Origin: a virus
Lineage: Duplodnaviria > Heunggongvirae > Uroviricota > Caudoviricetes
Length of the DNA: 20,824 nucleotides
IMG/VR virus record: IMGVR_UViG_2529293076_000030
Reading direction: 5' to 3' (one strand)
The first letter of the stretch is position 1; each line of letters opens with the position of its first letter. Of this stretch, positions 1 through 11,534 are shown piece after piece. The notes under the pieces were generated by a model, which saw only the letters and a program-made list of their open reading frames with translations, was not told where the DNA came from and searched no databases. Both the position numbers and the translations under genes were made by a program.

Positions 1-1143
1 CTATGCTGTTTTGATATCTACGATAATCCAGTCTTTACCACGATCATCATTGTATCGGTCGGTCATTTTTCTGGATTTATGACCTAACAACTTTTGCGTA
101 TCCAGACCCTGTTCCCGATATAACCGTTCTGACAGAGATCGCTGCTCATGAAATGTGGGCGCAGTTCCTTGCTCCCATTTTATGCCACATTTTTCCCTGG
201 CCTTTTTAAAAGCCGTTGTAAGAGTATTTGCAGACACCTGGTCTCCTCTGTTTGCTTGAGAGGTAGTGTGACGGTAATGGACCAGATATTTACTAACAAC
301 AGCATCCCTGCACTGAGATATAACTTCACGAAGGGTAATATTCAGAGCATCGCATTTCAGGTTAAGCGGAATAGCAAGTTTTGAACCGGTTTTTTCCTGA
401 GTAATGTGCAACATGTCGTCCCAGATATCAGAGAATTTCAAATTGCAGATATCGCTTAAACGTTGTCCAGTGACAAGAGCAAGTAGCATCCCGCATTTTA
501 AATAGGGCTGCCGTCTGCTTACGCTGTCAAATATTGCCTGCCATTCGGGCAGTGATAATCTTTGACGGTTTACTCGATTTCGCGGTTGTTTTGTTGCCTG
601 CGCTGGGTTAAATCCTGGCGGAACATGTCCTGCGTGTTGTGCTTCTTTGAAGACGTCGATCAACACCATTCTCACGACTTGCGCCATCCTGTTATGACCT
701 TCAGCCTTTACAGCATCAATTATTTCGGCAATATCAAGTGCGGTAATATCCTTGAGGTGTTGCATTCCACAATGCTCACGGAAAAGACGGATGGGTTTGC
801 CTTTTTGCCGATAGGAGTTGGGTCTTAGTTCATTATGTTGCAGCCTGTCCTCCTGGATAGAATTATATTTATCAAGCCATTCTGTCACCGTAATGTCTGA
901 GCGCCTGCCTTTCATTCTTTCCAGACGCTCATTGACGCTTAATATTTGTCGGGTACGTTGTTCAGCAATAATGGTATTTGCTTCAGTAGCAACTTGTTTT
1001 GCTTCATTCTCATCAGTTCCTAAGCTATGAAAACGACCGGATAGTGGATGTTTGTATTGCCAATATACCTTTCCGGTTCGCTTATCTAATTTGCAATATA
1101 AATTGGGTATAGAGATTTTGTGAGATCGGGGGCTAGCAGCCAT
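1..1143 (-). CDS. int: Lambda-family tyrosine integrase (380 aa); stop codon at window positions 1-3
   Basis: Complete minus-strand ORF. N-terminus (SPRSHK...PNLYCKLDKRTGKVYWQY) and C-terminus (PTFHEQRSLSERLY...LLGHKSRKMTDRYNDDRG) align by eye with lambda Int arm-binding and catalytic regions, including the box-II HxxR and catalytic Tyr context. Recognition from memory. Confidence 0.85.
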   Translation of the reverse strand: MAASPRSHKISIPNLYCKLDKRTGKVYWQYKHPLSGRFHSLGTDENEAKQVATEANTIIAEQRTRQILSVNERLERMKGRRSDITVTEWLDKYNSIQEDRLQHNELRPNSYRQKGKPIRLFREHCGMQHLKDITALDIAEIIDAVKAEGHNRMAQVVRMVLIDVFKEAQHAGHVPPGFNPAQATKQPRNRVNRQRLSLPEWQAIFDSVSRRQPYLKCGMLLALVTGQRLSDICNLKFSDIWDDMLHITQEKTGSKLAIPLNLKCDALNITLREVISQCRDAVVSKYLVHYRHTTSQANRGDQVSANTLTTAFKKAREKCGIKWEQGTAPTFHEQRSLSERLYREQGLDTQKLLGHKSRKMTDRYNDDRGKDWIIVDIKTA

Positions 1144-1369
1144 CAGCGATTATCCGTTGGAGTTTTGGGTTTGCGTTTATTGGGAGTTGCGGTTCTGCAA
1201 GCGTTCCTACAAAACGGGAATTTCGGTCAATCATCCAGTAGCGACCAACTTTTATAGCGGGTGGGGCCATCATTTTCCCTTGCGCGTATTTTTTCAGAAC
1301 TCGCTCACTTGGTGCTAAGTCCCCAAATTCTTCTTTAGCCCAGTCCCGTAAAGTGATTAGTCGAGACAT
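1133..1369 (-). CDS. xis: Excisionase-like small DNA-binding protein (78 aa)
   Basis: Small basic ORF immediately upstream of int, overlapping its start by 11 nt. Strong SD (GAGGAGG on minus strand, + coords 1371-1379) before the ATG. Position and size typical of lambdoid Xis. Confidence 0.6.
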   Translation of the reverse strand: MSRLITLRDWAKEEFGDLAPSERVLKKYAQGKMMAPPAIKVGRYWMIDRNSRFVGTLAEPQLPINANPKLQRIIADGC

Positions 1370-2297: not shown

Positions 2298-2995
2298 AAA
2301 ACATCGCCGCACAGATGGTTAACTTTGACCGTGAGCAGATGCGTCGGATCGCCAACAACATGCCGGAACAGTACGACGAAAAGCCGCAGGTACAGCAGGT
2401 AGCGCAGATCATCAACGGTGTGTTCAGCCAGTTACTGGCAACTTTCCCGGCGAGTCTGGCTAACCGTGACCAGAACGAACTGAACGAAATCCGCCGCCAG
2501 TGGGTTCTGGCTTTCCGGGAAAACGGGATCACCACAATGGAACAGGTTAACGCAGGAATGCGCGTAGCCCGTCGGCAGAATCGACCATTTCTGCCATCAC
2601 CCGGGCAGTTTGTTGCATGGTGCCGGGAAGAAGCATCCGTTATCGCCGGACTGCCAAACGTCAGCGAGCTGGTTGATATGGTTTACGAGTATTGCCGGAA
2701 GCGTGGCCTGTATCCGGATGCAGAGTCTTATCCGTGGAAATCGAACGCGCATTACTGGTTGGTTACCAACTTGTACCAGAACATGCGGGCCAATGCGCTG
2801 ACTGACGCGGAATTACGGCGCAAGGCTGCCGATGAACTGACCTGTATGACAGCGCGAATTAACCGTGGTGAGACGATACCTGAACCAGTAAAACAACTTC
2901 CTGTTATGGGCGGTAGACCTCTAAATCGTGCACAGGCTCTGGCGAAGATCGCAGAAATTAAAGCTAAGTTCGGACTGAAAGGAGCAAGTGTATGA
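2294..2995 (+). CDS. P: Replication protein P (DnaB helicase loader), 233 aa
   Basis: Near-identical over full length to lambda P as recalled (MKNIAAQMVNFDREQMRRIANNMPEQYDEKPQ...AKFGLKGASV). ATGA overlap with O stop. Confidence 0.92.
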   Translation: MKNIAAQMVNFDREQMRRIANNMPEQYDEKPQVQQVAQIINGVFSQLLATFPASLANRDQNELNEIRRQWVLAFRENGITTMEQVNAGMRVARRQNRPFLPSPGQFVAWCREEASVIAGLPNVSELVDMVYEYCRKRGLYPDAESYPWKSNAHYWLVTNLYQNMRANALTDAELRRKAADELTCMTARINRGETIPEPVKQLPVMGGRPLNRAQALAKIAEIKAKFGLKGASV

Positions 2996-3294
2996 CGGGC
3001 AAAGAGGCAATTATTCATTACCTGGGGACGCATAAGAGCTTCTGTGCACAGGACGTTGCCGCGGTAACAGGTGCAACCGTAACCAGCATAAATCAGGCTG
3101 CGGCTAAAATGGCGCGGGCAGGAATCCTGGTCGTTGATGGTAAGGTCTGGCGAACGGTGTATTACCGGTTCGCTACCAGAGAAGAACGGGAAGGAAAGGT
3201 GAGCACGAATCTGATTTTTAAGGAGTGTCGCCAGAGTGCCGCGATGAAACGGGTATTGAGGGTATATAAAAGAACATCAATGGGTACACAATGA
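2992..3294 (+). CDS. ren: Ren protein (100 aa), C-terminal end differs from lambda Ren
   Basis: MTGKEAIIHYLGTHKSFCAQDVAAVTGATVTSINQAAAKMARAGILV... matches lambda Ren; the last ~10 residues diverge, consistent with a recombination junction at the 3' end. ATGA overlap with P. Confidence 0.8.
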   Translation: MTGKEAIIHYLGTHKSFCAQDVAAVTGATVTSINQAAAKMARAGILVVDGKVWRTVYYRFATREEREGKVSTNLIFKECRQSAAMKRVLRVYKRTSMGTQ

Positions 3295-3311
3295 TGAAAC
3301 AGGTGAGTTGA

Positions 3312-3346
3312 GTTCAAACTGTAGTACAATTCTCTCCAGTTTGAAC
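3312..3346 (+). promoter_or_regulatory. Perfect 10-bp inverted repeat (GTTCAAACTG / CAGTTTGAAC) with 15-nt loop, 15 nt upstream of emrE start; function unknown
   Basis: Seen directly. No U-tract follows, so not a canonical intrinsic terminator. An SD-like AGGAAAG (3347-3353) follows before the emrE ATG at 3362. Confidence 0.3.
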
Positions 3347-3361
3347 AGGAAAGAATATGTT

Positions 3362-3694
3362 ATGAACCCTTATATTTATCTTGGTGGTGCAATACTTGCA
3401 GAGGTCATTGGTACAACCTTAATGAAGTTTTCAGAAGGTTTTACACGGTTATGGCCATCTGTTGGTACAATTATTTGTTATTGTGCATCATTCTGGTTAT
3501 TAGCTCAGACGCTGGCTTATATTCCTACAGGGATTGCTTATGCTATCTGGTCAGGAGTCGGTATTGTCCTGATTAGCTTACTATCATGGGGGTTTTTCGG
3601 CCAACGGCTGGACCTGCCAGCCGTTATAGGCATGATGTTGATTTGTGCCGGTGTGTTGGTTATTAATTTATTGTCACGAAGCACACCACATTAA
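3362..3694 (+). CDS. emrE: Small multidrug resistance (SMR) efflux transporter EmrE, 110 aa
   Basis: MNPYIYLGGAILAEVIGTTLMKFSEGFTRLWPSVGTIICY... matches E. coli EmrE essentially full length, including the conserved membrane-embedded Glu (E14) context. The ORF-track start at 3308 is an upstream extension. Confidence 0.92.
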   Translation: MNPYIYLGGAILAEVIGTTLMKFSEGFTRLWPSVGTIICYCASFWLLAQTLAYIPTGIAYAIWSGVGIVLISLLSWGFFGQRLDLPAVIGMMLICAGVLVINLLSRSTPH

Positions 3695-3724
3695 AAATAA
3701 TTTCTTTTAAAAGACTGCAATATG

Positions 3725-3757
3725 GCGGTTCATATCTTTACATGGGCCGCTTTTGTT
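3725..3757 (+). terminator. Candidate intrinsic terminator downstream of emrE
   Basis: Imperfect 9-bp stem (3725-3733 / 3742-3750, two G-U pairs), 8-nt loop, then TTTTGTT. Confidence 0.4.
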
Positions 3758-3938
3758 AATGTTTTTAGTTTTTGTGTATTCTTTTGTGCCTTCAAGATTA
3801 TTGCGTAAGCAAATTGCAATACGATTATTGTTGTATATTCAAGATAGTGTGATCGTAATTGTCTTTTTAAATAAAAATTAAACAAAAATTATATCTCACC
3901 ACTAAGGTTTATAAAAGCATAAGTTAGCAGGTGTCACC

Positions 3939-5465
3939 ATGAAAAAAGCCATAGCATATATGCGATTTTCATCACCAGGTCAGATGTCTGGCGACTCATT
4001 AAACCGACAGAGAAGACTTATTGCTGAATGGTTAAAGGTAAATAGTGATTATTATCTTGATACCATAACATATGAAGATTTAGGATTAAGTGCATTCAAA
4101 GGAAAGCATGCACAATCAGGAGCTTTTTCGGAATTTTTAGATGCTATAGAGCATGGTTATATATTGCCAGGAACTACATTGTTAGTTGAAAGTCTGGACA
4201 GACTTTCAAGAGAAAAAGTCGGTGAAGCGATTGAACGTCTGAAATTGATTTTGAATCACGGTATTGATGTTATAACTCTTTGCGACAATACAGTCTATAA
4301 TATTGACTCTTTGAATGAGCCATATTCATTAATAAAAGCCATACTTATAGCACAAAGGGCAAATGAAGAAAGCGAGATAAAGTCAAGTCGGGTTAAATTA
4401 TCATGGAAGAAAAAACGGCAGGATGCACTGGAATCAGGTACGATTATGACGGCGTCTTGTCCGAGATGGCTCTCCTTAGATGACAAAAGAACGGCTTTTG
4501 TTCCAGACCCCGACAGGGTGAAAACTATTGAGCTAATTTTTAAACTCAGGATGGAAAGGCGCTCATTGAATGCAATAGCCAAGTATTTAAATGATCATGC
4601 TGTAAAGAATTTCTCAGGAAAAGAAAGTGCATGGGGGCCTTCTGTAATTGAAAAATTATTAGCGAATAAAGCTCTGATAGGTATATGCGTACCTTCATAT
4701 CGTGCAAGAGGGAAAGGGATAAGTGAAATCGCTGGCTATTATCCCAGAGTCATATCAGATGATTTGTTTTACGCTGTACAGGAAATTCGGTTGGCACCTT
4801 TTGGTATTAGCAATAGTAGCAAGAATCCTATGCTAATAAATCTACTTCGAACAGTTATGAAGTGTGAGGCTTGTGGTAATACCATGATTGTTCATGCGGT
4901 ATCTGGAAGTTTGCATGGCTATTATGTTTGTCCGATGAGAAGATTACATCGATGTGACAGGCCATCAATAAAGAGAGATTTGGTTGATTATAATATCATT
5001 AATGAATTGCTTTTTAATTGTAGCAAAATTCAACCAGTTGAAAACAAGAAAGATGCTAATGAAACTTTAGAGTTAAAAATTATTGAGCTTCAGATGAAAA
5101 TTAATAATTTAATCGTTGCATTGTCTGTCGCGCCTGAAGTTACCGCTATAGCAGAGAAAATAAGACTATTAGATAAGGAATTACGAAGAGCTTTGGTATC
5201 ATTGAAAACTTTGAAGAGTAAAGGTGTAAATTCATTCAGTGATTTTTATGCTATTGACTTAACCAGTAAAAATGGACGAGAGTTATGCCGTACACTTGCC
5301 TATAAAATATTCGAAAAAATCATAATTAATACGGATAATAAAACCTGTGATATCTATTTTATGAATGGCATTGTTTTTAAACACTATCCTTTAATGAAAG
5401 TAATATCCGCCCAGCAGGCGATAAGTGCTCTCAAATATATGGTTGATGGTGAGGTTTATTTTTGA
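3939..5465 (+). CDS. ybcK: Large serine recombinase (508 aa), DLP12 YbcK-like
   Basis: N-terminal resolvase-type catalytic motif (AYMRFSSPGQ, with the putative nucleophilic Ser) followed by a long recombinase domain and a Cys cluster (CEACGN...C...C) typical of large serine recombinases. Matches K-12 YbcK in length and position after emrE. AT-rich codon usage. Confidence 0.8.
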   Translation: MKKAIAYMRFSSPGQMSGDSLNRQRRLIAEWLKVNSDYYLDTITYEDLGLSAFKGKHAQSGAFSEFLDAIEHGYILPGTTLLVESLDRLSREKVGEAIERLKLILNHGIDVITLCDNTVYNIDSLNEPYSLIKAILIAQRANEESEIKSSRVKLSWKKKRQDALESGTIMTASCPRWLSLDDKRTAFVPDPDRVKTIELIFKLRMERRSLNAIAKYLNDHAVKNFSGKESAWGPSVIEKLLANKALIGICVPSYRARGKGISEIAGYYPRVISDDLFYAVQEIRLAPFGISNSSKNPMLINLLRTVMKCEACGNTMIVHAVSGSLHGYYVCPMRRLHRCDRPSIKRDLVDYNIINELLFNCSKIQPVENKKDANETLELKIIELQMKINNLIVALSVAPEVTAIAEKIRLLDKELRRALVSLKTLKSKGVNSFSDFYAIDLTSKNGRELCRTLAYKIFEKIIINTDNKTCDIYFMNGIVFKHYPLMKVISAQQAISALKYMVDGEVYF

Positions 5466-5584
5466 GTAATAATCACTTTTTCAACCGTGCTATGGTATGA
5501 AAGTAAAGTAACTACTATGATATTAACTATCGAGCAAGAATATCCCCAGGCACTCAACAGGGCGCAGGTCAACGTGAATCGGTC

Positions 5585-5776
5585 ATGACACGACACCGAT
5601 TTTGCGGAATCAATGTTGCTTATGAATACAACATCCCGCTTAGTACATGTTCAACACATCAGCAAATTTTGAACTGGGTGTGGCACTTAACTGAAAAAAC
5701 ATGGATGACACAAAATGTTACTCGTCGCTTCATTGAAGTAGCTTGTGGATATCACAAGCTAGACTATCGCCAATGA
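5585..5776 (+). CDS. Hypothetical 63-aa ORF; possibly a gene remnant rather than a real gene
   Basis: ORF only. No convincing SD. C-terminal ...RRFIEVACGYHKLDYRQ is faintly reminiscent of AraC-family C-termini; in K-12 the AraC-type gene ybcM lies at this position. Speculative. Confidence 0.2.
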   Translation: MTRHRFCGINVAYEYNIPLSTCSTHQQILNWVWHLTEKTWMTQNVTRRFIEVACGYHKLDYRQ

Positions 5777-5871
5777 TATTCAATTTTTGATTTTTTAGTA
5801 TCAACCTTCCATAATAATGTCACCGGAGCTTGAACAACTCCGGTGACTTCTGCGCATTTAAGGGGACTTAA

Positions 5872-5970
5872 ATGCGACCACAATCTGAACTCCTTACCTT
5901 GTCACAGATGCAGAAATGCACCTGCGATGTCTTGCATCCAGCGTTTGATCTCTGCGGAGGTGAAGCGTGA
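5872..5970 (+). CDS. ylcH: Small protein YlcH-like (32 aa)
   Basis: ATG 5872; translation [32 protein letters not shown]. Stop TGA overlaps the GTG start of the next gene (GTGA). Position immediately upstream of ybcN as in DLP12. Identity from memory is uncertain. Confidence 0.4.
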
Positions 5971-6422
5971 ACCTCCCACAAGATGGCATCAAATTACATC
6001 GCGGTAACTTCACCGCTGTCGGTCAGCAGATCCAGACTTATCTGGAAGACGGCAAATGCTTTCGCATGGTGCTTAAACCGTGGCGCGAGAGACGCAGTCT
6101 TTCCCAGAATGCACTCAGCCACATGTGGTACAGCGAAATCAGTGAATACCTCATCAGCAGGGGGAAATCGTTCGCTACTTCAGCATGGGTAAAAGATGCT
6201 CTCAAACACACATACCTCGGTTATGAAACCAAGGACCTGGTTGATGTCGTAACCGGCGAAATCACTACTATCCAGTCGTTACGCCATACCTCCGATCTTG
6301 GTACCGGAGAGATGTATGTCTTCCTGTGTAAGGTTGAAGCCTGGGCGATGAATATTGGCTGCCACCTGACTATTCCACAGAGCTGCGAGTTCCAGCTGCT
6401 GCGTGACAAGCAGGAGGCGTAA
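5967..6422 (+). CDS. ybcN: NinB-family protein YbcN (151 aa), GTG start
   Basis: [19 protein letters not shown]...[12 protein letters not shown] matches K-12 YbcN. SD GGAGG at 5956-5960. Confidence 0.85.
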
Positions 6423-6592
6423 TGGCTACACCGCTTATTCGTGTCATGAACGGACACATCTACAAAGTACCAAATCGTCGTAAGCGTAAACCTGAGCTGA
6501 AGCCATCCGAAATACCAACACTGCTCGGATATACCGCCAGCCTGGTTGATAAAAAATGGTTGCGACTGGCAGCAAGGAGGAATCATGGCTGA
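6422..6592 (+). CDS. ninE: NinE (56 aa)
   Basis: [56 protein letters not shown]. Not in the ORF track (<60 aa). ATG overlaps the ybcN stop (TAATG). Confidence 0.8.
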   Translation: MATPLIRVMNGHIYKVPNRRKRKPELKPSEIPTLLGYTASLVDKKWLRLAARRNHG

Positions 6593-6875
6593 TTTGAGAA
6601 AAGCAGCGCGTAGTCGGGAATGCCAAGTAAGAATCCCTGGCGTATGTAATGGCAACCCTGAAACGTCTGTACTGGCACATATCCGGCTGACTGGATTGTG
6701 CGGCACCGGTACCAAACCGCCAGACTTGATTGCCACCATTGCATGTTCTGCCTGCCACGACGAAATCGACCGCCGCACACATTTTGTCGATGCTGCATAT
6801 GCAAAAGAATGCGCGCTGGAAGGTATGGCGAGAACACAGGTTATCTGGCTGAAAGAGGGGGTTATTAAGGCGTGA
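6585..6875 (+). CDS. ybcO: YbcO (DUF1364 putative nuclease), 96 aa
   Basis: True start is ATG at 6585 ([23 protein letters not shown]...), overlapping the ninE 3' end by 8 nt. The ORF-track start at 6546 is an upstream extension. Cys/His-rich motif. Confidence 0.8.
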
Positions 6876-7234
6876 ATACCTACAGCATCACATTACCCTG
6901 GCCTCCGAGCAATAATCGCTACTACCGGCATAATCGCGGGCGCACGCACATCAGCGCAGAAGGGCAGGCATACCGTGATAACGTCGCCCGAATCATCAAA
7001 GGCTCCATGCTGGATATCGGCCTGGCTATGCCAGTGAAAATCCGTATTGAGTGCCACATGCCGGATCGCCGTCGCCGTGACCTGGATAATCTGCAAAAAG
7101 CCGCTTTTGACGCACTCACCAAAGCAGGTTTCTGGCTGGATGATGCTCAGGTCGTTGATTACCGTGTTGTGAAGATGCCCGTTACCAAAGGTGGGAAGCT
7201 GGAGCTGACCATCACCGAACTGGGGAATGAATGA
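6872..7234 (+). CDS. rusA: RusA Holliday-junction resolvase (120 aa), GTG start
   Basis: [25 protein letters not shown]...[30 protein letters not shown] matches E. coli RusA. GTGA overlap with ybcO. Confidence 0.9.
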
Positions 7235-7371
7235 TGTTTGAGTCTTATATGGCAGAACGTCTTCGCCACCGCTGGATGCGCCTGCGCTTATATCGTTTTC
7301 CTGGTTCTGTTTTGACCGATTACCGGATACTGAAGAATTACGCCAAAACACTGAAAGGAGCTGCCGCATGA
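7231..7371 (+). CDS. ylcG: YlcG-like small protein (46 aa)
   Basis: [46 protein letters not shown]. Overlaps rusA stop and Q start. Confidence 0.6.
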
Positions 7372-8057
7372 ATACCCAATATTTACAGTATGTCCGCGAG
7401 CAACTCATTGTGGCTACCGCTGATTTGAGCGGAGCAACGAAAGGACAGCTTGAAGCCTGGCTGGAGCATGCACAATTTGATACTGGTACATACAAACGAA
7501 AGAAGCCGCGCATTCTGGATGAGGTAACTGGCAGGATGATTACGCTGGATAATCCGCCGATTTCCGGTAAGCAGTCGTACGCAAAAGGTTCATCCATTGC
7601 ACTGGTCAGCCAGGTTGAGTTCTCAACCTCGTCATGGCGCCGCGCGGTTCTGTCTCTCGAAGAACATCAGAAAGCGTGGTTGCTGTGGAGTTACAGCGAA
7701 AGTGTTCGCTGGGAACATCAGGTCACCATAACGCAGTGGGCATGGAGCGAGTTTAAGACTCTGTTGGGTACCAGGAAAATTGCAGGTAAGACACTGGAAC
7801 GTTTGAAGAAGTTGATCTGGCTGGCGGCACAGGATGTGAAGAACGAGCTGGCAGGGCGTAAGACCTATGAATACCAGGAGCTGGCATCACTGGTGGGAGT
7901 GACATCAAAAAACTGGTCTGAGACATTTACTGAACGCTGGGTTGCAATGAAACACATTTTTCTACAGCTTGATAGCCAAGCTTTATTGCTTTTAACGAAA
8001 ACACGTTCAAAACAAAAGACCACATTTTCACAGCAAGATATTGCAAAACTGGATTAA
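7368..8057 (+). CDS. Putative late-gene antiterminator (Q-like), 229 aa; not lambda Q
   Basis: Assignment is mainly positional: after rusA/ylcG, before a strong promoter, two intrinsic terminators and the lysis cassette. Sequence lacks the Cys cluster of lambda Q and I do not recognise its family with certainty. Confidence 0.5.
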   Translation: MNTQYLQYVREQLIVATADLSGATKGQLEAWLEHAQFDTGTYKRKKPRILDEVTGRMITLDNPPISGKQSYAKGSSIALVSQVEFSTSSWRRAVLSLEEHQKAWLLWSYSESVRWEHQVTITQWAWSEFKTLLGTRKIAGKTLERLKKLIWLAAQDVKNELAGRKTYEYQELASLVGVTSKNWSETFTERWVAMKHIFLQLDSQALLLLTKTRSKQKTTFSQQDIAKLD

Positions 8058-9930: not shown

Positions 9931-10211
9931 GGTGTTATTCCCGATGCTTTTTAAAGTTCGCAGAATCGTATGTGTAGAAAATTAAACAAACCCTAAACAA
10001 TGAGTTGAAATCTCATATTGTTAATATTTATTAATGTATGTCAGATGCGAAGGATCGTCACTGTATTCCCGGATTAACTATGTCCGCAGCCCTGACAGGG
10101 AAACTCCTCTGCGGGAGTGTCCGGGAATAATTAATAACGATGCACACAGGGTTTAGCGCGTACACGTATTGAACCGCCCCGGTTTTCCTGGAGAGTGTTT
10201 TATCTGTGAAC

Positions 10212-11099
10212 TCAGGCTGCCAGATCATCGTTTCTGATGGAAGCATAATAAGCTTTTTCTGCTTCTGCCGGAGGGATATGACCCAGCCTTCCCAGCAATC
10301 GTCGATTGTTATACCAGTCCACCCACGTGAGTGTGGCCAGTTCCACTTCTGCACGGTTTTTCCAGCTCTTACGGTGTATTACCTCCGCTTTGTAAAGACC
10401 ATTGATGCTCTCCGCCATCGCGTTGTCATACGAGTCACCTGTACTCCCTGTTGATGCCAGCAGTTTTGCTTCTTTTAGTCGCTCCGTATAGGCCAGTGAT
10501 ATATACTGAGAACCTTTATCACTGTGATGGACTGTGCCGGACGGCCGACGGGCCCACAACGCCTGCTCCAGTGCATCCAGCACGAATGTCGTTTCCATAG
10601 ACGATGAGACTCGCCACCCCACGATACATCCGGCAAACACATCAATGATGAACGCCACATAGACGAAGCCCTGCCATGTGCTGACGTAAGTAAAATCAGC
10701 CACCCACAGCTGGTCAGGACGTTCTGCCACGAACTGACGGTTTACGCGGTCGCCTGCGGAAACGGCTTTCCGGCTGACGGTAGTACGGACCTTTTTACCC
10801 CGGAGAACACCGGCAAGTCCCATAACCGCCATGAGGCGCGCCACTGTACATCTGGCCACCCTGATACCTTCGCGTAACAACTGGCGCCAGACTTTACGCA
10901 CACCGTACACCTGATGATTTTCATCGTATACGCGCTGTATCTCTCTCTTCAGCCAGTCATCGCGCTGAGCACGGGCACTGCGTTTATCAGGATGATGTCG
11001 CTGTTGCTGACAGTGGTAATACGTTGACGGGGCAATATGCAGTTCACTGCATACCGGTCCGACCCCGTACTGCTCACGCAGCTTATCCAGCAGCGGCAT
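10212..11099 (-). CDS. IS629-type transposase OrfB (DDE integrase-like catalytic domain), 295 aa from first ATG; normally expressed as an OrfAB fusion by -1 frameshift
   Basis: Contains DDE-type motifs (WVADFTY..., HSDKGSQY..., YDNAMAESINGLYKAE) characteristic of IS3-family transposases. In the -1 frame relative to orfA. Confidence 0.85.
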   Translation of the reverse strand: MPLLDKLREQYGVGPVCSELHIAPSTYYHCQQQRHHPDKRSARAQRDDWLKREIQRVYDENHQVYGVRKVWRQLLREGIRVARCTVARLMAVMGLAGVLRGKKVRTTVSRKAVSAGDRVNRQFVAERPDQLWVADFTYVSTWQGFVYVAFIIDVFAGCIVGWRVSSSMETTFVLDALEQALWARRPSGTVHHSDKGSQYISLAYTERLKEAKLLASTGSTGDSYDNAMAESINGLYKAEVIHRKSWKNRAEVELATLTWVDWYNNRRLLGRLGHIPPAEAEKAYYASIRNDDLAA

Positions 11100-11425
11100 T
11101 ATTTTTTCCAGAGGCGGTCGAACTCCGCCTTCGCAAAATAAGCGGAAGCCTGGCGAAGGATATCGTTACTGCGGCGCAGTTCACGATTTTCACGTTCCAG
11201 CTCTTTCAGACGCTGACGTTCAGCGGTGGTGAGTCCACCATCACCACTCCCGGTATCCCGCTCATGCTGACGAACCCACACACGCAGAGTCTCTGGTGTA
11301 CAGCCAATCTTTGGGGCAATGGAACAAATTGCCGCCCATTGTGAGTCATATTCGCCCTGACTTTCCAGAACCATACGAACTGCTCGTTGACGGACCTCGG
11401 GGGAAAAACGTGTATTTTTAGTCAT
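11099..11425 (-). CDS. IS629-type transposase OrfA (108 aa, HTH/leucine-zipper part)
   Basis: [57 protein letters not shown]... typical IS3-family OrfA. Ends ...WKK* at an A6 run that overlaps the orfB start. Confidence 0.85.
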
Positions 11426-11534
11426 CCTGTTTACCTCTTTCTCAGGGAGTTTAGTCTCCAGGATTCCCGGGGCGGTTCATATTGCATTATGCCAACGCCC
11501 CGGTGCTGACACGGAAGAAACCGGACGTGATGAT

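Follow-up and report, generated by a model that had tools for sequence, protein, structure and literature searches.

The orphan large serine recombinase gene ybcK in the ren–nin cargo compartment of lambdoid prophages of Escherichia coli

The AT-rich stretch at positions 3295–5871 of the window (the whole 20,824-nt piece of DNA analysed here) is the accessory-gene (moron) compartment of a defective lambda-like prophage at icd of Escherichia coli O157:H7. In the 99.98%-identical region of strain 115, RefSeq annotates a tyrosine integrase (1–1143, minus strand) and an excisionase (1133–1369, minus strand) in the order icd, site-specific integrase, excisionase; in the window prophage, the DNA from xis to mid-O has been lost. 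Upstream of the compartment lies ren (2992–3294, plus strand), encoding a 100-aa Ren-like exclusion protein (PHROG 142, E = 6e-42). G+C content is 36.4% across 3295–5871, with a minimum of ~30% among 300-nt windows of the stretch, compared with 49.5% for the whole window, 49.9% for O-P-ren and 49.6% for nin to Q, which bears out the sharp drop in base composition reported in the first-pass annotation. The gene content given there, emrE together with ybcK, an intact gene for a 508-aa large serine recombinase, also agrees with our Pfam and NCBIfam assignments. The view that this is cargo gained horizontally and placed between ren and the nin genes is correct as well.

Comparison of the ren-to-ybcN interval across prophages, a check proposed in the same annotation, located breakpoints at 3258/3285, 3702/3703, 5504/5531 and 5785 and split the region into three independently assorting modules. 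The island had been placed roughly correctly, but its exact ends differ from those first assigned. The left break lies inside the 3′ end of ren at 3259–3285, within the last 10–36 nt of the gene: the match to a ren-bearing phage with other cargo (L002) ends at 3258, and the match to the emrE copy at the fliE locus begins at 3285. The right break lies at 5784/5785 and not at 5871, with 5785–5871 already belonging to the conserved nin block.

Module 1 (3285–3702, plus strand) consists of emrE with a 77-nt leader. The coding sequence (3362–3694, plus strand) specifies a multidrug efflux pump of 110 aa from the proton-coupled SMR type, of which emrE is the textbook example. The predicted protein matches the NCBIfam model SMR_efflux_EmrE (NF042984) over its full length (positions 1–110 of 110) with 240 bits, above the curated cut-off of 226, and Pfam Multi_Drug_Res (PF00893) with E = 2e-35, as expected of an EmrE-type SMR multidrug efflux transporter. 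An Rfam scan of the leader found no riboswitch or other RNA, and its hairpin folding was no better than that of shuffled sequences (z = −0.28). At the fliE locus, a copy of the module with 91.6% identity stands without ybcK, and dN/dS between the two emrE copies is 0.02. Spread-sampled genomes without a prophage copy retain emrE-ybcL-ybcM beside fliE and have no ybcK there. These data show emrE to be phage cargo with movements separate from those of ybcK, persisting also as a fixed fliE-adjacent remnant.

Module 2 (3703–5531, plus strand; 34.6% G+C) comprises a 236-nt leader, the ybcK coding sequence (3939–5465, plus strand) and a 3′ flank of at most 66 nt. Downstream of emrE, at the start of this module, a terminator scan detected an intrinsic-terminator-like hairpin on the plus strand (3724–3751) with a 10-pair stem followed by the T-run TTTGTTAATG; K-12 has an equivalent hairpin in the same place. 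The leader also contains an annotated ylcJ-like small ORF of 40 aa (3759–3881) and a conserved 30-nt patch (3815–3844, π = 0.006) that could be a binding site rather than a promoter, a point against the reading favoured below. The 3′ flank is hypervariable (π = 0.16–0.25), and the right edge of the module falls variously at 5474, 5504 or 5531, similarity between ybcK-bearing prophages stopping at 5504 (K-12 type) or 5531. The K-12 counterpart of the module is a 2083-bp segment; at the fliE locus, emrE is followed by ybcL with exactly this segment missing.

Module 3 (5532–5784, plus strand) is an O157-lineage-specific piece of 253 bp containing a 63-aa ORF (5585–5776, plus strand) of a phage protein family of unknown function (PHROG 2559, E = 4e-51). 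Of 5426 genomes, 310 contain it, with an identity of at least 99% in 308, and a relative with 76% identity lies directly after ren in L020, a prophage with unrelated cargo. The conserved nin block starts at 5785 (5785–6422, plus strand), where similarity resumes at 5785–5786 in the six directly compared ren/nin-bearing prophage loci whatever their cargo, and at 5785–5787 in all IMG/VR loci but one (5811). The block opens with a hairpin with a 12-bp stem found by the terminator scan (5819–5847) and includes ybcN (5967–6422, plus strand), a member of the NinB/Orf family (NCBIfam PRK09741, 272 bits). A search of PADLOC-DB 2.0 returned no match for YbcK, EmrE, the 63-aa ORF, Ren, YbcN or the small leader ORF.

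The domain composition of YbcK is that of a large serine recombinase, as judged by profile searches. The catalytic domain (residues 4–161) matches Pfam Resolvase (PF00239; E = 5e-19, profile positions 1–141 of 145), the recombinase domain (191–284) matches PF07508 (E = 2e-14) and the zinc ribbon (302–357) matches Zn_ribbon_recom (PF13408; E = 8e-8); a predicted coiled coil (~368–426) and a β-rich C-terminal end follow. Among phage families, the protein matches the PHROG 95 integrases with E = 7e-120 and, through the catalytic domain that it has in common with small serine invertases, PHROG 125 with E = 2e-21. The catalytic motif YMRFSSPGQ, which had been described as intact-looking, occupies residues 7–15, and the C-terminal Cys cluster noted with it corresponds to the zinc-ribbon residues Cys309, Cys312, Cys331 and Cys339, which are invariant in 22 orthologues. 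Arg9, Ser11, Asp87, Arg88, Arg91 and Glu92 do not vary among these orthologues or among 35 protein variants from E. coli, and the DRLSR segment aligns with Asp67, Arg68 and Arg71 of γδ resolvase.

The AF2 model of YbcK (pLDDT 79) predicts long helices at residues 368–397 and 402–426. Foldseek searches of the PDB with this model retrieved, as top hits, 9dxd (E = 2e-18), 9iu2 (Bxb1, E = 2.5e-14), 9tep (PhiC31, E = 2e-14) and 4kis (E = 3e-10), with alignments of ~520–600 columns to the full-length serine integrase entries; the TM scores of 0.2–0.4 are low, as expected of flexible multi-domain proteins. The model thus matches solved serine integrases in structure over the full length. By sequence, phmmer found no match for YbcK in the PDB, and the family profile gave only spurious matches of its Cys-rich region to RING fingers. 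Few large serine recombinases of full length are native to E. coli, K-12 included, and YbcK is among them. We found no report of recombination activity in the literature mentioning ybcK. No recombination substrate was identified, and catalytic activity is predicted from conservation only.

As measured by coding substitutions, ybcK is kept under strong purifying selection, with a dN/dS of 0.06–0.09 over a dS of ~0.13–0.15 and π by codon position of 0.0135/0.0052/0.0469. Loss of the catalytic Ser and Arg residues, and with it pseudogene status, had been named as an outcome that would overturn the initial reading, and ybcK is no pseudogene: these residues and the catalytic Asp are invariant, and 79 of 80 sampled copies are intact. 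A silent, non-functional relic decaying into a pseudogene might nevertheless be seen in the remaining copy, which has a premature stop, in an internal emrE–ybcK deletion at one locus (L006), in one IS1-mediated deletion and in the silencing of ybcK in K-12 by a Rho/NusG-dependent terminator in the leader and by Hfq/polyphosphate binding (PMC4150792, PMC10954037). The selection data already contradict such a relic, as do the full-length orthologues at 40–61% identity across genera and the fact that sequenced lambdoid phages carry ybcK, with virion production established for at least Perceval (PMC9928086); we regard it as extremely improbable.

Across complete E. coli genomes, ybcK is present in 1426 of 5426 (26%), at one or two places per genome and nearly always directly after emrE; it is also carried by sequenced lambdoid phages equipped with a tyrosine integrase of their own. 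The order ren-emrE-ybcK is collinear in 83 of 86 E. coli loci. Two of the remaining loci are interrupted where a contig ends; in the third, emrE has been truncated by a rearrangement upstream but still adjoins ybcK. The DNA downstream of ybcK takes at least eight forms, among them ybcL-ybcM, an esterase gene, and an Ant-like ORF of 107 aa with either BstA (PADLOC, E = 4e-121) or one of four unknown PHROGs behind it. The ren–nin slot is hypervariable, and elsewhere it is filled by other cargo, namely two unrelated ORFs in L002, and a PHROG-12459-type ORF, a P22AR-domain gene and holE-like genes in L020. The island is therefore not uniformly present with identical boundaries, the second outcome that had been named as refuting. 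One locus (H104) was considered as an empty site containing only ylcJ and was rejected as an IS1-mediated deletion. BstA, found in this slot of other prophages, does match a PADLOC defence model.

These distributions do not support the suggestion that emrE and the recombinase form a single nested mobile cassette or its remnant: the two genes are distributed separately, no repeats bound them, the downstream DNA has its many forms, and ybcK is fixed after emrE. The reported absence of flanking direct or inverted repeats held in our scan of the window, where the only matches bounding the island or its modules were AT-rich and at chance level, and in 22 orthologue loci, where the best upstream/downstream inverted or direct match was 8–11, compared with 9.0 ± 1.1 (maximum 13) for mismatched control pairs. 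No att-like, inverted or target-duplication repeat was found at the borders of any module. Serine integrases act on cognate att sites of 40–50 bp, one of them usually next to the gene. Such a pair for YbcK was sought as a dyad or flanking repeat, none of which exceeded chance, upstream of ybcK included, where no attP-like dyad was found; weak half-site symmetry may escape a sequence search.

The ybcK module, with or without its neighbours, could still be or have been a small integrative or transposable element with YbcK as its integrase or transposase. Between emrE and ybcL, the 2083-bp ybcK-only segment is either there or missing exactly, with AATAAT(T/A) at both of its junctions and once in the empty site, and this exact presence and absence could still be a site-specific event. 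In 35% G+C DNA, however, an AT-only repeat of 6–7 bp is expected by chance, and in E. coli the gene occupies one position only, after emrE. Pfam also shows no extra domain in YbcK of the kind present in the TnpX and TndX transposases.

Beyond E. coli, YbcK orthologues of 502–523 aa occur across Enterobacterales, each encoded by a lone gene whose surroundings are often unrelated: behind tail-fibre genes, in the slot between replication genes and nin/Q, or on large plasmids. A Pfam scan of three genes on each side at 16 loci, together with clustering of all nearby ORFs, gave no family-wide neighbour that could be a partner gene or RDF candidate, and no flanking DNA is conserved among orthologues beyond 40–130 nt upstream in two close pairs. 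This variety of contexts would suit a mobile element, as would a two-gene pair that lies upstream of the recombinase gene in three prophages and downstream in a fourth, indicating that the recombinase gene was placed independently. At 4 of 36 loci, moreover, diverged partial copies of a neighbouring gene bracket the recombinase gene and cargo, and the genes called or scanned at these loci include no further recombinase. The best of these cases (L014) was rejected as an att scar, as a mosaic junction accounts for its duplication: all 80 related DUF1367 phages lack the recombinase gene, several have the native order DinI-DUF1367, and the left flank of the L014 fragment is collinear with them. 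Similar bracketing duplications occur in L015, L038 and L039. A role as an invertase beside tail-fibre or PilV-like genes was likewise discarded, with no inverted repeats or mirrored gene fragments found there and the L015 duplication being direct. Neutral decay of the flanks would by itself make similarity stop at the gene edges when copies of 77% identity are compared. Taken together, a discrete mobile element appears unlikely.

The relation of YbcK to phage integration can be judged from gene positions. YbcK is not the integrase of its carrier, because the prophage at icd has its own tyrosine Int and Xis; ybcK lies internally, between ren and the nin genes and ~2.8 kb from the icd-proximal prophage end. 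The same holds for two further carriers, DLP12 at tRNA-Arg with IntD and phage Perceval with its own tyrosine Int/Xis, and a Pantoea prophage with a YbcK orthologue also has a tyrosine integrase. The family might instead be the true integrases of other enterobacterial phages, with the E. coli copy a captured second route for integration or excision. The strong PHROG 95 match and the complete serine integrase fold would be explained in this way. In several genera other than Escherichia, the orthologue lies last or nearly last in front of the host DNA. In prophages of Atlantibacter, Erwinia, Yersinia and Ewingella it stands at the end of the prophage, behind the tail-fibre genes. The Atlantibacter gene is convergent with an intact ssrA at a distance of 540 bp, a place typical of integrases, so that the orthologue could be a true phage integrase there. 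Against this, two other genes separate the recombinase gene from host DNA in Erwinia, no E. coli prophage is permuted with ybcK at the prophage–chromosome junction, and among the carriers examined, those that reach a prophage or phage end encode a tyrosine integrase that suits the site in question (icd, tRNA-Arg, Perceval). The hypervariable DNA 3′ of ybcK and the lack of an attP-like dyad upstream also argue against it, and we hold a captured integrase to be improbable.

The reading we favour, with a probability of roughly 0.65, is that of a mosaic cargo slot housing an orphan recombinase that is intact and distinct from the integrase of its carrier. The slot itself is the accessory compartment of DLP12/Perceval-type lambdoid phages between ren and the nin recombination genes. 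The three modules (emrE, ybcK and the O157 piece) would have been inherited separately and joined by ordinary phage–phage recombination; the pattern fits mosaic exchange among lambdoid phages at a hot spot for cargo, and YbcK would then not have inserted the stretch as a cassette. When expressed, YbcK would probably act like other serine integrases, with Ser11 as the nucleophile making 2-bp staggered double-strand cuts in two short sites, followed by subunit rotation and religation. It may do so in trans, on sites that are not beside ybcK, although this trans-acting role is much less certain.

A gene that is intact under strong constraint in a quarter of E. coli genomes and in several lambdoid phages must do something. 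YbcK probably travels as a solitary one-gene module through cargo and defence hot spots in enterobacterial phages and plasmids, and its benefit therefore most likely lies in dealings between mobile elements rather than in integrating its carrier; a part in conflict between such elements is a guess from this context. Candidate roles include integrating, excising or breaking other DNA, or providing a second integration route. That YbcK-type proteins form a clade of solitary large serine recombinases, retained by selection in such hot spots for a task other than integrating their carrier and acting on other mobile elements in conflict or exclusion, or promoting the exchange of cargo at the hypervariable 3′ junction in a manner loosely like an integron integrase, is a tentative proposal to which we assign a low likelihood. 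If true, a conflict or cargo-swapping role would be a new biological use of the serine-integrase fold, in a gene of K-12 itself. Its att sites, once found, would offer a new orthogonal recombinase for E. coli engineering and could show what use a temperate phage makes of a second recombinase that is not an integrase.

Several known systems resemble YbcK in part. The invertases PinE, PinQ, PinR, Gin and Cin have the serine-recombinase catalytic domain in common with it, and some YbcK orthologues adjoin tail-fibre genes; however, the invertases are proteins of ~190 aa with a C-terminal HTH_7 domain, whereas the 508-aa YbcK has recombinase and zinc-ribbon domains and no inverted repeats or mirrored tail-fibre segments nearby. 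TnpX of Tn4451, TndX of Tn5397 and CcrAB of SCCmec serve elements with defined ends, a shared dinucleotide and several sites or a circular form. There, as here with emrE, a large serine recombinase gene adjoins a resistance-type gene, and these elements make no target-site duplication, so that missing repeats alone do not exclude such a model. In contrast to them, emrE and ybcK assort separately, and the ybcK region has one E. coli location, a variable right edge and no terminal repeats.

The serine integrases of SPbeta-type (9dxd), Bxb1 (9iu2), PhiC31 (9tep) and Listeria LI/A118 (4kis) have the same domain order, fold and catalytic Ser and Arg as YbcK, with a catalytic domain, a long helix E, a recombinase domain and a zinc ribbon with a coiled-coil insert, but are only 14–20% identical to it. 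Each is the sole integrase of its phage and is encoded beside attP, unlike the internally placed ybcK with no recognisable att site. The layout ren-emrE-ybcK-...-ybcN recurs in the sequenced lambdoid phages Perceval (OV696612, from E. coli LF82), 4A7, D2, 1W, 3W, Turner, PhiR34_1 and others, and their YbcK, labelled 'Large serine recombinase' in Perceval, is 97.8–99.6% identical. Perceval differs in that the phage is complete, its early regions are full and ybcK is followed by an esterase gene; its virion production has been shown, and its EmrE is reported to be a moron induced in DMEM (PMC9928086). Closest is DLP12 of K-12, in which b0544 is the same gene, with 7 of 1527 nt differing and three amino-acid changes (Nei-Gojobori), within the same order ren-emrE-ylcJ-ybcK; RefSeq labels both 'ybcK: recombinase family protein'. 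DLP12 diverges 39 nt past the ybcK stop, where ybcL-ybcM stand in place of the 253-bp piece with the 63-aa ORF, and it lies at tRNA-Arg rather than icd, with a different integrase and Q gene. The emrE–ybcK region, already annotated in DLP12 and Perceval, is a real feature and not a discrete nested element.

The AT-rich stretch between ren and the nin genes (window 3295–5871) has a G+C content of 36.4%, against 49.9% and 49.6% for the phage genes on its two sides, and 300-nt windows range from 30 to 42% between ~3300 and ~5700. It carries emrE (3362–3694), which passes the EmrE-specific NCBIfam model, and ybcK (3939–5465), whose 508-aa product has three Pfam domains typical of a large serine recombinase (LSR). 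A search of the window for direct or inverted repeats bounding the region returned only AT-rich chance matches. The first-pass annotation, which had reported a sharp compositional drop, an efflux pump gene next to a large serine recombinase gene and a lack of flanking repeats, is therefore correct in its description. The region that it delimited also stands, but not its exact ends: the left break falls within the final 10–36 nt of ren (3259–3285) and the right break at 5784/5785, ahead of a strong hairpin (5819–5847). This perfect 12-bp-stem hairpin (GTCACCGGAG..CTCCGGTGAC) opens the conserved nin block 35 nt beyond the end of the cargo slot, and its position suggests a tR2-like terminator; all of the cargo would therefore be located upstream of the terminator on the pR transcript.

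Pairwise comparison of the stretch with other E. coli prophages defined three modules, comprising emrE (3285–3702), ybcK (3703–5531) and an O157 piece (5532–5784). In spread-sampled E. coli genomes without a prophage copy, an emrE with 91.6% identity adjoins fliE and is followed directly by ybcL-ybcM and then by an nmpC-like porin gene; this locus resembles the window over 3285–3702 only. Exactly 2083 bp of K-12 DLP12, covering ylcJ, ybcK and a further 310 bp on the downstream side, are missing from the fliE locus, where the flanks of this segment are separated by only 4 nt. The sole string common to the junctions, AATAAT(T/A), carries no weight because the DNA is so AT-rich. In E. coli THO-006 (locus L007, 6001–9521), the remnant between fliE and yedK consists of emrE-ybcL-ybcM, a trace of the region upstream of ybcN and the nmpC-like porin gene, and it is fixed in those spread-sampled genomes in which a DLP12-type prophage is absent. 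It has the appearance of a leftover from an old DLP12-like prophage lacking ybcK, and its emrE differs from the phage copy by a dS of ~0.38 with a dN/dS of 0.02.

The third module is replaced separately. In the 86 loci that carry ybcK, the match to the window stops at 5504 (K-12 type), 5531 or occasionally 5474, and it restarts at 5785–5787 in all but one locus. At least eight forms of DNA lie between the end of ybcK and the nin block, including ybcL-ybcM, an esterase gene in reverse orientation, an Ant-like ORF of 107 aa with either BstA (PADLOC E=4e-121) or one of four PHROGs of unknown function behind it, and the O157 type of 253 bp with a 63-aa ORF (PHROG 2559), which is present in 310 genomes, nearly all of them O157. 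The ren-to-ybcN interval, which the first-pass annotation had proposed to compare across prophages, is thus not uniform, and two loci with the same ren and nin genes (L002 and L020) contain quite different cargo and neither emrE nor ybcK. In a related phage of another genus (L014), the equivalent slot holds a 646-aa SIR2-domain protein (5755–7695) that matches PADLOC candidate systems. Since the modules differ separately and other cargo fills the same ren-nin slot, the AT-rich stretch behaves as a mosaic cargo hot spot, and the ren-nin interval is a hot spot for defence genes and morons. The pairing of a transporter with an orphan recombinase had suggested a nested mobile cassette, but the comparison resolves it into three modules, with an emrE at fliE that lacks ybcK and a variable 3′ piece, and a nested cassette now appears unlikely. 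The abortive-infection gene bstA (PHROG 6287; 6213–7142 in locus L004, and also in the L162 class of IMG/VR loci) lies 3′ of ybcK and an Ant-like pseudogene in the ren-nin slot of some E. coli prophages. Decay of the emrE-ybcK region is rare; in one lineage, that of E. coli FDAARGOS_401 (L006, 3463–4435), an in-frame-looking internal deletion of window 3552–4679 joins 5′ emrE sequence to 3′ ybcK sequence, and RefSeq annotates two pseudogenes.

The coding sequence of ybcK is under clear constraint. Divergent E. coli alleles show a dN/dS of 0.06–0.09 at a dS of ~0.13–0.15, and diversity at the three codon positions is 0.0135, 0.0052 and 0.0469. The gene is intact in 79 of 80 copies from IMG/VR prophages, and R9, S11, D87, R88, R91 and the four zinc cysteines show no variation; the DRLSR motif lines up with D67/R68/R71 of gamma-delta resolvase. 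Orthologues of 502–523 aa with 40–61% identity are present in Atlantibacter, Yersinia, Erwinia, Pantoea, Kluyvera, Ewingella and Citrobacter; they include those of Atlantibacter (DHIB01000016), Erwinia rhapontici (JAGGMP010000001) and Yersinia enterocolitica. The AlphaFold model (pLDDT 79) resembles full-length serine integrases in the PDB (SPbeta-type, Bxb1 and PhiC31) as well as partial structures such as a Listeria LI integrase fragment. Because of the low dN/dS, the intact copies, the invariant catalytic and zinc residues, the orthologues and the fold, ybcK is a real, constrained gene and not a pseudogene, and the alternative of a decaying relic is effectively excluded.

In E. coli, ybcK is present in 1426 of 5426 complete genomes, in one or two places each, and at least 12 records of sequenced lambdoid phages contain it as well. 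The gene keeps its collinear order with ren and emrE in 83 of the 86 loci having enough sequence; two of the remaining three end at contig ends and one is rearranged upstream. Its carriers occupy different integration sites, each with a tyrosine integrase to match: the window prophage at icd, DLP12 at tRNA-Arg with IntD, and phage Perceval, for which virion production has been shown (PMC9928086), with its own tyrosine integrase and excisionase. YbcK is therefore neither the integrase of the prophage nor visibly mobile in E. coli, and it is improbable that the gene represents a captured integrase, despite the fold that it shares with such enzymes.

The region of interest is 100% identical to E. 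coli O157:H7 chromosomes. The near-identical strain 115 is annotated with the order icd, tyrosine integrase, excisionase, replication protein O without its N-terminus, P, ren, emrE, a small ORF, ybcK, ybcN, ninE, ybcO, rusA, Q, lysis genes, bor, and terminase and portal genes, which identifies the window as a defective lambdoid prophage integrated at icd. The prophage retains its own tyrosine integration module (1–1369) but has lost the whole stretch from xis to mid-O; the truncated O gene follows the excisionase gene almost directly (1370–1480; RefSeq note). By comparison with the complete phage Perceval, the early-left arm and immunity region (exo/bet/gam, N, cI, cro and cII) are gone. Just upstream of the ybcV region, an IS3-family insertion sequence (10172–11479, minus strand; ORFs 11099–11425 and 10212–11099) contains an ALIL pseudoknot for programmed frameshifting (11028–11144; Rfam RF01497, 121 bits). 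It is missing from strain 115, which is otherwise 99.98% identical to its left and 99.5% to its right, and the two flanks overlap by 5 bp, suggesting a short target duplication.

Outside E. coli, the orthologues are solitary in every case and occupy three settings: 3′ of tail-fibre or tail-fibre-assembly genes at a prophage end (Yersinia, Atlantibacter, Erwinia, Ewingella and several IMG/VR contigs; the Atlantibacter gene is 540 bp from an intact ssrA), between replication genes and NinG/Q as in E. coli (the left end of one such Pantoea prophage carries a tyrosine integrase), and between unrelated gene blocks on large Erwiniaceae plasmids. Scans of neighbours revealed no conserved partner gene, and no conserved att-like element was found in any flank. 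Because a two-gene pair lies upstream of the LSR gene in three prophages and downstream in a fourth, the gene must have been placed on its own, as a single unit.

At four loci, diverged partial copies of a neighbouring gene flank the LSR and its cargo on both sides. For L014, an integration scar was considered and rejected: the LSR is absent from all 80 related phages, several of these have the downstream arrangement, DinI-DUF1367, as their native order and the left flank of the fragment is collinear with them, so an ordinary mosaic junction accounts for the locus. The other three, from outside E. coli, share this layout (L015, 8145–13573; L038, 9241–12634; L039, 9306–16362). In these, an orthologue with 1.4–5 kb of cargo has diverged partial copies of a neighbouring gene, in direct orientation, on either side (a PilV/shufflon-like gene, lambda P and DUF2280), and no other recombinase was found among the bracketed genes scanned.

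In E. coli, no part of the region varies more than the 66 nt that follow the ybcK stop codon (pi 0.16–0.25). In 55 distinct sequences of the aligned ren-to-ybcK segment, a 30-nt leader patch (3815–3844; tgcaatacgattattgttgtatattcaaga) has a pi of 0.006, compared with 0.02–0.07 in nearby non-coding DNA and 0.047 at ybcK third codon positions; judged by this conservation, it may serve as a promoter, belong to the reported Rho-loading region or bind a protein. A Rho/NusG-dependent terminator in the untranslated leader keeps K-12 ybcK off (PMC4150792), and Hfq binds ybcK DNA in a polyphosphate-dependent manner (PMC10954037). Sabinene tolerance of BL21 rises with ybcK overexpression and falls with its knock-out (PMC7181518), and Perceval EmrE is induced in DMEM (PMC9928086).

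The stretch is best read as a mosaic cargo slot holding a selected, silenced and apparently competent large serine recombinase, which would act in trans on other sites. We found no report of recombination by YbcK in papers mentioning ybcK; recent studies linking prophage serine recombinases to defence deal with small invertases, PinQ for example, and not with YbcK. Which sites YbcK recombines is a tractable question. The finding is genuine and corresponds to the known emrE-ybcK segment of DLP12/Perceval-type phages, with no sign of a novel type of system.
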